A stretch of DNA of 64,000 nt from the IMG/VR virus record IMGVR_UViG_3300046787_000129, positions 45,630 through 109,629 of that record, one strand, 5' to 3'. Positions 57,827 through 64,000 of the stretch are shown piece by piece. The notes below the pieces were generated by a model. It did not search any database. It saw only the letters and a list, made by a program, of their open reading frames with translations, and was not told the DNA's origin. Position 1 is the stretch's first letter; each line of letters begins with the position of its first letter. The DNA comes from a virus. The translations under genes were made by a program, and so were the position numbers.

Positions 57827-57903
57827 TCTTCCAGCTGGGGATCGAACCCAGATGTCACCAATTACTCTTTCTACACCTTATAAGAGTGAGGAGATACTGG
57901 AAG
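57827..57903 (-). ncRNA. Rearranged tRNA-like RNA with UAU anticodon-like loop
   Basis: CTTCCAG/CTGGAAG acceptor and CTGGG-TTCGATC-CCCAG T arm perfect; no D arm in normal position; CACT-CTTATAA-GGTG arm followed by AATTGGT. Confidence 0.75.
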
Positions 57904-57908
57904 TAAAG

Positions 57909-60352: not shown

Positions 60353-60364
60353 TATCTCTCCTTG

Positions 60365-60436
60365 CTCTCCCCCAAGGACTCGAACCTCGATAGCCAGGAC
60401 CAAAACCTGGAGTCTTGCCAATTAGACGAAGGGAGA
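60365..60436 (-). tRNA. tRNA-Gln(TTG)
   Basis: TCTCCCT/GGGGAGA; CCAGG-TTTTGGT-CCTGG. Confidence 0.92.
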
Positions 60437-60464
60437 ATGCGGCAAAGCAGATCATTACTTTACC

Positions 60465-60556
60465 TAGTTACAGTGGGATTCGAACCCACGCCTCCCCTAG
60501 TCATCTGCTGCATACAGTTTATAGACTATGGCGTACTGCCCCTATACTATGTAACT
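60465..60556 (-). ncRNA. tRNA-like RNA with expanded anticodon domain
   Basis: AGTTACA/TGTAACT acceptor, GTAT/GTAC D stem, GTGGG-TTCGAAT-CCCAC T arm; 43 nt between D and T arms without a canonical 7-nt loop. Confidence 0.72.
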
Positions 60557-60558
60557 TG

Positions 60559-60635
60559 TGGCATGTCAGGGAATCGAACCCTTCTAACCTATGGTACAGG
60601 ATTTACAGTCCCGTGTCTGTCCCAGCAGCCATGCC
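60559..60635 (-). tRNA. tRNA-Tyr(GTA), non-canonical core
   Basis: CGGGA-CTGTAAA-TCCTG; ACC-ATA-GGT variable arm; short D arm; mismatches at acceptor/T junction. Confidence 0.7.
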
Positions 60636-60746
60636 TTGTGCACCTTAGCCTAACCCAGATAGGTGCCACATCTGTAATAGTTTTTACTAGTATTACTATT
60701 AAGGAGTCATAATGCTTTCGCAACATAGGACTATTCCTGGTGTTCG

Positions 60747-60900: not shown

Positions 60901-61038
60901 CTATTTTAGCAGAGACTTTAGCTTTTCGCAATAGCAATTTGAAGATTCATTTAGATCCATAAGGTCTTTGTAGATATACCAGGGTATTTGATACCAGGCA
61001 CCGCAAGGGCAATTATAATACATAGGTTGTTTTGCCAT
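60901..61038 (-). CDS. Small Cys-rich protein (45 aa, leaderless, not in ORF track)
   Basis: TATAAT 5 nt before ATG; CPCG...CYC. Confidence 0.55.
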   Translation of the reverse strand: MAKQPMYYNCPCGAWYQIPWYIYKDLMDLNESSNCYCEKLKSLLK

Positions 61039-62101: not shown

Positions 62102-62248
62102 ATGAGTAAGAAATCACTATACGAACTACAGTATGAGAACGCCAAGATTGAGAACGATGTAAACACTGGGTGTGCAATCATTGGCTTGGTGGGTTTTGGA
62201 ATCATTGCATTATTCATAATTGTTGCATTCTCTCTAGCGTTAGGCTAA
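62102..62248 (+). CDS. Small membrane protein (48 aa)
   Basis: SD AAGGA; C-terminal TM. Confidence 0.5.
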   Translation: MSKKSLYELQYENAKIENDVNTGCAIIGLVGFGIIALFIIVAFSLALG

Positions 62249-62250
62249 TT

Positions 62251-62505
62251 ATGGCACAGCTACTCAAGGCAAACAAGCCTACGAGTCTTACCTGTATGCA
62301 CAACCTAGACTACGAGATGGACTGGGATGGCGATGAGTATCTATATAAAGTAGATCTGGATAAGCGTTACATTGACCACCTCGAACGATCGGGGTATCGT
62401 ATGCACAGGCTGGTACCAGAAATCCTAGTATGGAATAAGTCACTAGACTTCCAAACTATATATATTGCACGTGCAGAAGACTTTGATGAAGTGGAGATGT
62501 TTTAA
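62251..62505 (+). CDS. Hypothetical protein
   Basis: ATG 62251; coupled to next gene. Confidence 0.5.
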   Translation: MAQLLKANKPTSLTCMHNLDYEMDWDGDEYLYKVDLDKRYIDHLERSGYRMHRLVPEILVWNKSLDFQTIYIARAEDFDEVEMF

Positions 62506-62990
62506 TGACTGTATTCTTAATTAGCGATACTCACTTTGGCCACGCTAATATTGTTAAGTATGCAGAGCGTCCATTCGATACCGTTGAAGAAATGAACGAG
62601 GTAATGGTTGATAACTGGAATAGTGTTGTTAAGCAAGGTGACAAGGTATATCACCTTGGAGATGTCACTATGAACTCTAAGTCATTAGATATCCTATCAC
62701 GACTAAATGGTCGTAAGGTATTGATCAAAGGCAACCACGATATTCAGAAGCTAAAGTTTTATACTCCACACTTCTACGATATTCGTGGTAGTCACGAACT
62801 AGATAACTTTATCTTAACTCACATTCCTGTTAGCGATACCCAGAAGTTGCGGTATAGGGGAAACATTCACGGACACACTCACGAGAAGAACCTACAAGAT
62901 CCTTGGTACTTTAACGTAAGTGTAGAACAAATCAATTACACACCAACAGCATTTGATGAAATAATTAAGGATATACGATGGAACAAATAA
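62505..62990 (+). CDS. Calcineurin-like metallophosphoesterase
   Basis: SDTHFGH, HLGD, GNHD, THIP, HGHTH. Confidence 0.92.
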   Translation: MTVFLISDTHFGHANIVKYAERPFDTVEEMNEVMVDNWNSVVKQGDKVYHLGDVTMNSKSLDILSRLNGRKVLIKGNHDIQKLKFYTPHFYDIRGSHELDNFILTHIPVSDTQKLRYRGNIHGHTHEKNLQDPWYFNVSVEQINYTPTAFDEIIKDIRWNK

Positions 62991-64000
62991 CCAATAAACT
63001 ATTTAACTGGGCATCTATTCTAGATGAGAAAACACTTGAGCAGGCTAAGACTACTTCGTCAATGCCGTTCATTTTCCCACACCTAGCACTGATGCCAGAT
63101 GCACACCTTGGTAAGGGGTCTACTGTTGGGTCAGTAATTCCTACACAGGGAGCCATTATGCCTGCTGCAATTGGGGTAGACATTGGCTGTGGAATGATGG
63201 CTATTAAGACTAACAAGAATGTACACGACATAGAGGGTGTAAACCTTAAGGAATTGCGTGAGTCAATTGAGTCTGCTATTCCACTATCAGCTTTTAAGCA
63301 TAATCAGACAGTTAAGCCAGATGCACTTGATGCAGCAGAGGAACTGCTTGACGCTGCCCTAGACGCTGGGTTTAATCCATCAGACTATGCGAGTAACTGG
63401 ACGCACCAGCTTGGATCTCTTGGTTCTGGCAATCACTTTATTGAGATTACAGTGGATGAGGAAAACTCTATCTGGCTATTCTTGCACTCAGGCTCTCGTG
63501 GAATTGGTAACAAGATTGCTACACATCACATTGCTGTTGCACAGGAATATGCAAAGAAGAACTTCATTACCCTGGTAGATCCAGACCTAGCGTACCTTGT
63601 AGAAGGCACTGTAGAGTTCGATCGCTACATCGCTGAGATGACTTGGGCACAAAAGTTTGCTTTTAAGAATCGTGAAGTAATGATGAGTCGTGTCAAGAAG
63701 GCATTTAAGCATCACGTTGGTGATTTCGAAATCATTGAAGAGATTAACTGTCACCACAACTTTACTCAGCCTGAGAATCATTGGGGCAAGAATCTGTGGA
63801 TAACTCGTAAGGGTGCTATCTCTGCTAATGAAGGACAGATGGGTCTTATTCCAGGTTCAATGGGTACTGCATCGTATGTAGTTGAAGGACTTGGTAATAA
63901 GCTTTCGTTCTGCACTGCACCACATGGTGCTGGGCGTGAATACTCTCGTAATGAAGCACGAAAGGTCTTTACAAAAGAGTCCTTAGATGATATGATGAGA
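62978..64000 (+). CDS. rtcB: RtcB RNA ligase (3' truncated by window, absent from ORF track)
   Basis: Translated by hand: MEQITNKL...LMPDAHLGKG...GVDIGCGM...LGSLGSGNHFIE...HSGSRGIG...CHHN...RKGA...IPGSMG...APHGAGR. Confidence 0.96.
   Translation, partial: MEQITNKLFNWASILDEKTLEQAKTTSSMPFIFPHLALMPDAHLGKGSTVGSVIPTQGAIMPAAIGVDIGCGMMAIKTNKNVHDIEGVNLKELRESIESAIPLSAFKHNQTVKPDALDAAEELLDAALDAGFNPSDYASNWTHQLGSLGSGNHFIEITVDEENSIWLFLHSGSRGIGNKIATHHIAVAQEYAKKNFITLVDPDLAYLVEGTVEFDRYIAEMTWAQKFAFKNREVMMSRVKKAFKHHVGDFEIIEEINCHHNFTQPENHWGKNLWITRKGAISANEGQMGLIPGSMGTASYVVEGLGNKLSFCTAPHGAGREYSRNEARKVFTKESLDDMMR

Follow-up and report, generated by a model that had tools for sequence, protein, structure and literature searches.

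The window analysed here is a stretch of DNA of 64,000 nt, the final 64 kb of a 109,629-bp IMG/VR virus record (G000), and positions below refer to it unless stated otherwise. In this uncultured lake phage, a gene for a tRNA-shaped RNA of 92 nt lies at 60465-60556 on the minus strand. It belongs to a same-strand array whose order is tRNA-Glu, tRNA-Trp, a 105-nt spacer, an aberrant tRNA-Tyr-like gene, the tRNA-shaped gene (hereafter the element), a hairpin and tRNA-Gln; a small ORF and GroES come after the array. Array genes are separated by just 1-4 nt. The 9-bp hairpin stands directly 3′ of residue A73 of the element (1 nt after it), tRNA-Gln follows 4 nt beyond the hairpin, and a promoter-like site ends 9 nt ahead of tRNA-Glu, the first gene of the array.

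60903..60931, minus strand: promoter-like site, TTGCGA-17-(TG)TAAAAT, a consensus match only
60557..60640, minus strand: aberrant tRNA-Tyr(GUA)-like gene immediately upstream of the element (fold, sub-threshold tRNA-Sec match)
60465..60556, minus strand: tRNA-shaped RNA gene, the element (ARAGORN, Rfam tRNA model, conserved in six other viral records)
60550-60556 with 60466-60472, minus strand: acceptor stem, with the discriminator A at 60465
60533..60547, minus strand: D arm, stem GUAU/GUAC and loop AGGGGCA, which includes the G18G19 equivalents
60495..60531, minus strand: elongated arm, 37 nt (RNAfold, RNAalifold, pair counts)
60518-60523 (UAUAAA) opposite 60503-60504 (AU), minus strand: asymmetric internal loop of the arm
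60505-60517, minus strand: inner hairpin of the arm, CUGU-AUGCA-GCAG, with a 4-bp stem CUGU/GCAG and loop AUGCA
60473..60489, minus strand: T arm, GUGGG-UUCGAAU-CCCAC
60441..60464, minus strand: 3′ hairpin, 9-bp stem GGUAAAGUA/UGCUUUGCC and loop AUGAUC
60364..60436, minus strand: tRNA-Gln(UUG), the next gene of the array (ARAGORN, Rfam)

The record contains whiB and its relatives carry class II tRNA-Tyr genes of 82-85 nt, which together point to a bacterial host; judged by these genes, the host is probably actinobacterial. The last ~1 kb of the record (108607-109629, equivalent to window 62978-64000, in rtcB) recurs at record positions 1-1002 with 99.4% amino-acid identity. The ends of the record therefore overlap, through circular permutation or terminal redundancy, though IMG/VR classes it as linear.

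The body of the element is that of a tRNA. ARAGORN labelled 60465-60556 on the minus strand 'tRNA-???', and the Rfam tRNA model scored it at 46.1 bits (E 1e-6, against a gathering score of 29), in an alignment that spans acceptor, D arm and T arm but passes over 34 nt within the anticodon arm. Read on the minus strand, the layout is AGUUACA-UA-GUAU-AGGGGCA-GUAC-G-[37-nt arm]-GAGGC-GUGGG-UUCGAAU-CCCAC-UGUAACU-A. All seven pairs of the acceptor AGUUACA/UGUAACU are Watson-Crick, and A73 is the discriminator. The features of a canonical tRNA body are thus present: a 7-bp acceptor, a D arm with G18G19, a UUCRA T loop and the tertiary 15-48 pair. The original prediction had described a perfect acceptor and T arm and a plausible D arm, a description that was confirmed.

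The element departs from a tRNA in the middle, where a 37-nt arm stands in place of a 17-nt anticodon stem-loop. Its outer stem, CC-A-UAGUC/GACUA-G-GG, consists of eight layers (C-G, C-G, A·G, U-A, A-U, G-C, U-A, C-G). RNAfold gave the elongated arm for five of the six known sequence variants, and RNAalifold returned the same arm from their alignment with the arm not supplied beforehand. Across variants the arm has about eight stacked pairs, an internal loop UCUAYAAA(A)C / GAUG, a 4-bp stem and an (A)UGCA cap. The fold first drawn for this region (60490-60532, minus strand), in which CC-A-TAGTC/GACTA-G-GG encloses an asymmetric loop and a CTGT/GCAG hairpin, was reproduced by both programs. The accompanying claim that no 5-bp/7-nt anticodon arm fits was borne out as well: the sole alternative offered by ARAGORN in the window has a 5-bp stem, a 6-nt loop and a two-base 'anticodon'.

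This alternative stem (AUAGU/ACUGU) was 93% paired in the alignment, with zero double changes and one pair broken in two sequences. It leaves 3-5 unpaired bases past the D stem and an unstructured 'variable arm' of 24-27 nt, and four sequences have a 6-nt loop (CUAUAA) and the other two a 7-nt loop, with differing triplets (AUA, ACA). For its loop sizes, triplets, broken pairs and unstructured remainder it was rejected as a working anticodon arm; it may be a minor conformer. None of the models for the six variants contained a 5-bp stem and 7-nt loop with U33 and a shared anticodon. A canonical decoding tRNA was likewise rejected, the anticodon arm being replaced by the 37-nt arm. On these fold models the element is almost certainly unable to decode: the elongated arm cannot put an anticodon into the decoding site of the ribosome, so the RNA would play no part in translation.

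Other tRNA-like genes of the phage are also irregular. The Tyr-like gene at 60557-60640, 2 nt from the element, combines a long variable region and a perfect anticodon loop, CUGUAAA, with a D arm cut down to a 3-bp stem and 3-nt loop and with mismatches at 7-66 and 49-65. It was missed by ARAGORN and the Rfam tRNA model, and the tRNA-Sec model scored it at 28.5 bits, below its gathering score of 47. Relatives have a normal tRNA-Tyr of 82-85 nt, in one case (L011) at the position of the Tyr-like gene. The 105-nt spacer (60641-60745, minus strand), which runs from tRNA-Trp to the Tyr-like gene, is nearly identical in another relative (L008), where tRNA-Gln comes directly next. It ends in a hairpin, GCACCU...AGGUGC, 2-4 nt ahead of the next tRNA, and its folding energy is no better than that of shuffles. 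Farther along, a tRNA-shaped gene at about 57827-57905 (minus strand), between tRNA-Met and tRNA-Leu(UAA), has an intact acceptor (CUUCCAG/CUGGAAG) and T arm. An anticodon stem-loop of Ile(UAU) type (CACUCUUAUAAGGUG) comes immediately behind its acceptor strand, and its D region lies out of place; in relatives this cluster has a normal tRNA-Ile(UAU).

Distribution of the unit among related phages

IMG/VR was searched with exact and degenerate patterns, and a protein query with GroES brought in 49 related loci. A covariance model was then applied to the GroES-linked loci and to the entire records from which they came. The unit of tRNA-like gene plus hairpin was found in six other IMG/VR phage records, seven including the window, which together hold six distinct sequences. 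In L003/L007 the element is identical to that of the window, and the middle section 60490-60532 is repeated exactly in two other viral contigs. The RNAs of L002, L004 and L006 (112-kb record G047) are 92-97% identical to that of the window, and L009/L056 and L057 are more divergent variants.

Beyond these records the unit was absent wherever the searches reached. With the covariance model it was absent from about 45 other related IMG/VR records, among them two complete relatives of ~116 kb and the two closest by GroES (L008 and L010, 94-95% identical), in which tRNA-Gln stands directly after the spacer. GenBank phages yielded no unit, only matches to the Glu and Trp tRNAs of the region, and scans of metagenome contigs with a D-arm/arm pattern and with a hairpin pattern were both empty. 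A loose arm pattern gave 84 matches in bacterial genome contigs, which we ascribe to chance: the covariance model supported none, one having an ordinary tRNA-level score. Four extra viral matches to the arm outside a tRNA body all lacked the flanking stem. No similar tRNA that might be the parent of the element was found in ~60 related loci: scores reached 15 at most, and the element homologues found there scored 43-58. Derivation of the arm from the anticodon loop of tRNA-Tyr or tRNA-Ile(UAU), a resemblance seen by eye, was unsupported.

The neighbours of the unit vary: upstream lies an odd tRNA(CAA) or the Tyr-like gene, and downstream Gln(UUG), Gln(CUG), Ser(UGA) or Ser(GCU). The hairpin accompanies the tRNA-like gene in every carrier, whichever tRNA comes next (Gln, Ser). 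Because gene and hairpin always occur together while the flanking tRNAs differ, they behave as a two-part accessory cassette, inherited as one in a small group of uncultured, probably actinobacterial, phages.

The gene just upstream in other carriers (L002 2794-2867, L004 2131-2204, L006 7805-7878, L057 292-365) is a 74-nt 'tRNA-Leu(CAA)' with a short variable loop. It has a C·C mismatch at 31-39 or a 9-nt loop, and its identity is a candidate one; bacterial tRNA-Leu is class II. The tRNA genes of G000, G047, G038, G041 and the partial loci form a mosaic in which the same isoacceptor is 55-99% identical: Gln(UUG) of G000, for example, is 99% identical to that of G038 and 68% to that of G047. 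On sequence identity, this suggests exchange of single tRNA cassettes between phages.

Few genes track the presence of the element. One is a 111-aa ORF (62170-62505, plus strand) that has no family match and no known domain; it is shared with L003/L007 (79%) and with L004 and G047 (63%), and has no match in G038 or G041. Genes present in G000 and G047 but not in G038 or G041 were a glycosyltransferase and small ORFs, of which those scanned matched no family. This comparison yielded no gene of known RNA function that co-occurs with the element, and the neighbouring ORFs contained no RNA-related domains.

Covariation in the element and its hairpin

The six distinct sequences, from about three independent lineages, were aligned to give 210 pair cells. 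Standard pairs filled 99% of these cells and seven pairs changed on both sides; none of 500 shuffles reached the observed values for pairing and double changes, and slid-partner controls were 31-56% paired. Covariation in homologs, named beforehand as a check on the element, was thus found. It is real but thin as sequence evidence, coming from six distinct sequences and about three lineages. Since the element is conserved with pair-preserving changes in six other records, the observation is more than chance.

Changes that preserve pairing fell in several parts of the unit. Three of the five T-stem pairs changed on both sides among variants (GUGGG/CCCAC, AUGGG/CCCAU, GCAGG/CCUGU). Within the arm, columns 34-63 were A-U, G-U or G-C, columns 36-61 were U-A or U-G (a change that arose independently in two sequences), and the closing pair of the inner stem, columns 48-54, went from U-G to C-G. 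The outer stem was 2 bp longer in L009 and L057 through insertions on both strands (UAUGGUC/GACUAUA; UAUGGUC/GGCCAUA). The tertiary 15-48 pair (columns 15 and 75) was G-C in four sequences and A-U in two, U13-G22 of the D arm became U-A in L057, and the hairpin stem showed an A-U to G-C double change in L004 and L006. As the G·U pairs correspond to A·C mismatches on the opposite strand, selection acts on the RNA of the minus strand.

While the stems changed, the loops did not: UCUAYAAA(A)C, (A)UGCA, GAUG and the AUGAUC loop of the hairpin were unvarying. U8, A14, the GG of the D loop and the T loop UUCGA(A/G)U were also invariant. GroES of the carrier phages is 64-66% identical to that of the window, yet the RNA is 92-97% identical. 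Part of this high identity may reflect recent transfer, because tRNA genes are swapped as cassettes between these phages.

The reading that we favour, at slightly better than even chances, is that the element is a conserved gene for a non-decoding tRNA-shaped RNA: a natural 'tRNA scaffold' that displays a conserved helix, is processed like a tRNA and serves as a mimic or platform. The original prediction had offered a tRNA scaffold displaying another RNA domain as one of two readings, and this one fits all the evidence: the tRNA body, the elbow, the 15-48 pair, the conservation of the elongated arm and the compensatory changes.

The main rival holds that the tRNA shape is a handle for processing. 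It would attract RNase P and RNase Z and thereby free or stabilise the adjacent hairpin RNA of 24-28 nt, or punctuate the array, as mascRNA does on MALAT1 and the tRNA-miRNA units do in murid herpesvirus 68. The hairpin suits such a role, lying directly after A73, always present, very stable (-11 kcal/mol, z -4.3), with an invariant loop and a compensatory change in its stem. However, this explanation leaves the conserved arm unaccounted for: an elongated, covarying arm with invariant loops is needless for a mere handle, and targets complementary to the hairpin loop in the phage genome did not exceed chance. We regard it as rather unlikely.

Decay of a tRNA gene would explain the element as a former tRNA with an insertion in its anticodon arm, spread as a cassette, functionless and not yet eroded. 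The phage does have other odd tRNA-like genes (the Tyr-like gene and the rearranged Ile-like gene), its tRNA cassettes move between phages, and four of the six sequences are nearly identical. Yet every change among the three lineages keeps pairing: the arm, T stem, hairpin and 15-48 pair all show pairs altered on both sides, and the insertions into the arm come in matched form, on one strand and on the other. The loops stayed invariant although the carrier phages are divergent. These observations make decay improbable.

The splicing question and comparison with known RNAs

The second reading of the original prediction, a precursor whose short insert is excised and sealed by the phage RtcB, was not sustained. 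In its full form it proposes an intron-bearing pre-tRNA from which ~20 nt are excised and whose halves are joined by the phage or host RtcB into a working tRNA. In its favour, ARAGORN in intron mode called Gln(CUG) with a 20-nt intron in the window, and also in L002 and L006, and RtcB and a phosphoesterase are encoded nearby. The intron option, itself a proposed check, was inconsistent across variants: L009 was called Phe(AAA) with a 6-nt intron, L004 had no intron call, and L057 had no call whatever. Such conflicting calls mean that no single mature anticodon arm is shared by the variants. In L009 and L057 the presumed anticodon stem is also weak, and position 33 would not be U.

The folds give no better support for splicing. 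Inspected by eye, they contained no bulge-helix-bulge at the proposed splice sites and no staggered 3-nt bulges; the helix is continuous across the supposed junctions, and the helix of the insert is itself conserved by compensatory change. No tRNA-intron endonuclease (PF01974) was found in the phage genome. A group I intron was also rejected, since the insert of ~20 nt is far too short and the Rfam scan found no intron family; group I introns in bacterial or phage tRNA are some hundreds of nt long with a P1-P9 core.

The link to RtcB fared no better. On the plus strand at 62505-64000, a metallophosphoesterase gene (phrog_547) overlaps the start of rtcB, 2.4 kb from the element, and both genes are missing from the complete relatives G047, G038 and G041. 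The complete 112-kb G047 thus has the RNA and lacks RtcB and the phosphoesterase. RtcB occurs in the genome of the window, and a fragment of it lies in L013, in whose record the element was not seen; a phosphoesterase fragment at the end of L003/L007 suggests that the RtcB cassette is also present there. With the RNA found apart from RtcB in G047 and an RtcB fragment apart from the element in L013, the link is unsupported, and RtcB and the phosphoesterase are better read as an accessory RNA-repair cassette independent of the element. Taken together, these results make a spliced precursor very improbable. An intron call by a tRNA finder beside a phage RtcB gene is not evidence for bacterial tRNA splicing.

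An extremely improbable alternative is a Y-RNA-like RNA whose arm binds host Ro60/Rsr and whose tRNA-like body brings in other factors, in the manner of YrlA: YrlA combines a tRNA-like domain with a protein-binding stem and occurs in actinobacteria and mycobacteriophages, often near rtcB (PMC4201824, PMC7790460), and the (G)GUC/GAC(U) of the arm recalls the vertebrate GGUCCGA helix, but the bacterial motif GNCGAAN0-1G (PMC4201824) is absent from the element, its ends sit in the acceptor stem rather than in the protein-binding stem, a TROVE gene (PF05731) is missing from the phage, and no Rfam Y RNA or YrlA matched even at E<=10.

Several other families were considered and rejected. The hallmarks of tmRNA are the G3-U70 alanine identity, a tag reading frame and pseudoknots. 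The element has U3-A70 instead of G3-U70 and drew no tmRNA call from ARAGORN; a possible tag frame, GCA GCA GAU GAC UAG, occurs only in window-type sequences and is lost in L009 and L057. By eye, there are no tandem G-A pairs as in a K-turn, and for a hammerhead the element has CAGAUGA rather than CUGAUGA and no GAAA. It is too small for an HDV-like ribozyme.

Likenesses to known systems were partial. RNAC and RNAD (species 1 and 2) of phage T4 are matured like tRNAs. They too are small stable non-tRNA RNAs encoded among phage tRNA genes, and their function is still not known (PMC9697503); likened here by description, they differ from the element in being longer, in lacking a cloverleaf with one elongated arm and in having a proteobacterial host. 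YrlA and bacterial Y RNAs (PMC4201824) also join a true tRNA-like module to a second helical module; they occur in actinobacteria and their phages and are associated with RNA-repair operons. Compared with YrlA, the element has a permuted topology, no Ro60-binding motif, no TROVE gene and no Rfam match. The mascRNA, menRNA and herpesvirus tRNA-miRNA units are non-decoding tRNA look-alikes in which cleavage sites for RNase P and RNase Z set where neighbouring RNAs begin or end. The element resembles them in the hairpin directly 3′ of its discriminator and has the structural features that such tRNA-like processing needs, so that its own processing is predicted from structure. Those units, however, are eukaryotic or from eukaryotic viruses and have shortened anticodon arms, whereas the arm of the element is lengthened and itself conserved. 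Mycobacteriophages with anticodon-loop variant tRNAs, by which they escape host defences that cleave tRNA (PMC10264068), are actinobacterial phages that likewise alter the anticodon region of their own tRNAs; those tRNAs still decode and have 7-nt loops, whereas the element has no anticodon loop.

The closest analogue by design is the laboratory tRNA scaffold (Ponchon and Dardel; PMC3753655), which likewise keeps the acceptor, D and T arms and has a hairpin in place of the anticodon stem-loop. Unlike these man-made RNAs, the element is natural and conserved in phages, and it has both a specific internal loop that does not vary and a hairpin attached on its 3′ side. Among natural RNAs, T4 RNAC/RNAD and the tRNA-like modules of YrlA and mascRNA come nearest. 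Judged by defining features, the element belongs neither to the decoding tRNAs nor to any other named family tested. It is new as a variant of the non-decoding tRNA-like RNAs, so far restricted to seven uncultured phage records.

Possible role of the element

If the element is a natural scaffold, its path from transcript to mature RNA would follow that of a tRNA. The promoter-like site ahead of tRNA-Glu would drive its transcription together with that of the adjacent tRNAs, and RNase P, as in established tRNA biology, would cut its 5′ end and in doing so free the upstream tRNA. The 3′ end would be made by an RNase Z cut after A73 and addition of CCA, or the hairpin would be retained as protection. 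The tRNA body would confer tRNA-like processing and stability: engineered scaffolds with the anticodon arm swapped for a hairpin are processed and stable in bacteria (PMC3753655). The long arm would make use by the ribosome implausible.

As to function, the likeliest role, though a tentative one, is that of a tRNA mimic that occupies or recruits a factor reading the tRNA body, the invariant loops of the arm, or both. Such a factor might be a host tRNA-targeting toxin or nuclease of a kind that actinobacteria commonly carry, for example acceptor-end modifiers of the MenT/AbiEii type, VapC-type toxins or anticodon nucleases. Given the probable host group, tRNA-directed toxins are natural candidate partners: the acceptor ends of tRNAs are targets of actinobacterial toxins (PMC7450476, PMC10435456), and phages deploy tRNAs of their own to counter defences aimed at tRNA (PMC10264068). 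Pairing with another RNA was not indicated: when G000 and G047 were searched for targets, the internal loop, apical region and hairpin loop each matched nothing but themselves and 9-10-mers at the level of chance. The 3′ strand of the arm (GCAGAU) is complementary over 6 nt to the hairpin (AUCUGC), which was judged to be chance, the match lying mostly inside the hairpin stem.

A more specific version of the mimic, which we consider doubtful, is a decoy excluded from the ribosome. Its long arm would bar it from the decoding centre, and its acceptor end, elbow and arm loops would soak up or recruit a host tRNA-targeting defence protein. Decoys usually keep the feature that their target recognises, and here the target is a candidate one. 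If true, the decoy would amount to an anti-defence device made of RNA alone, with a natural tRNA scaffold as its base.

The tRNA arrays of phages are commonly taken to be decoding sets. The element indicates that they can also hold a conserved tRNA-shaped RNA that is unable to decode. Should the partner be a toxin or nuclease with which the host attacks tRNA, the element would represent a new RNA-based counter-defence in actinobacterial phages; if the partner is a phage protein, the arm would be a compact natural RNA tag.
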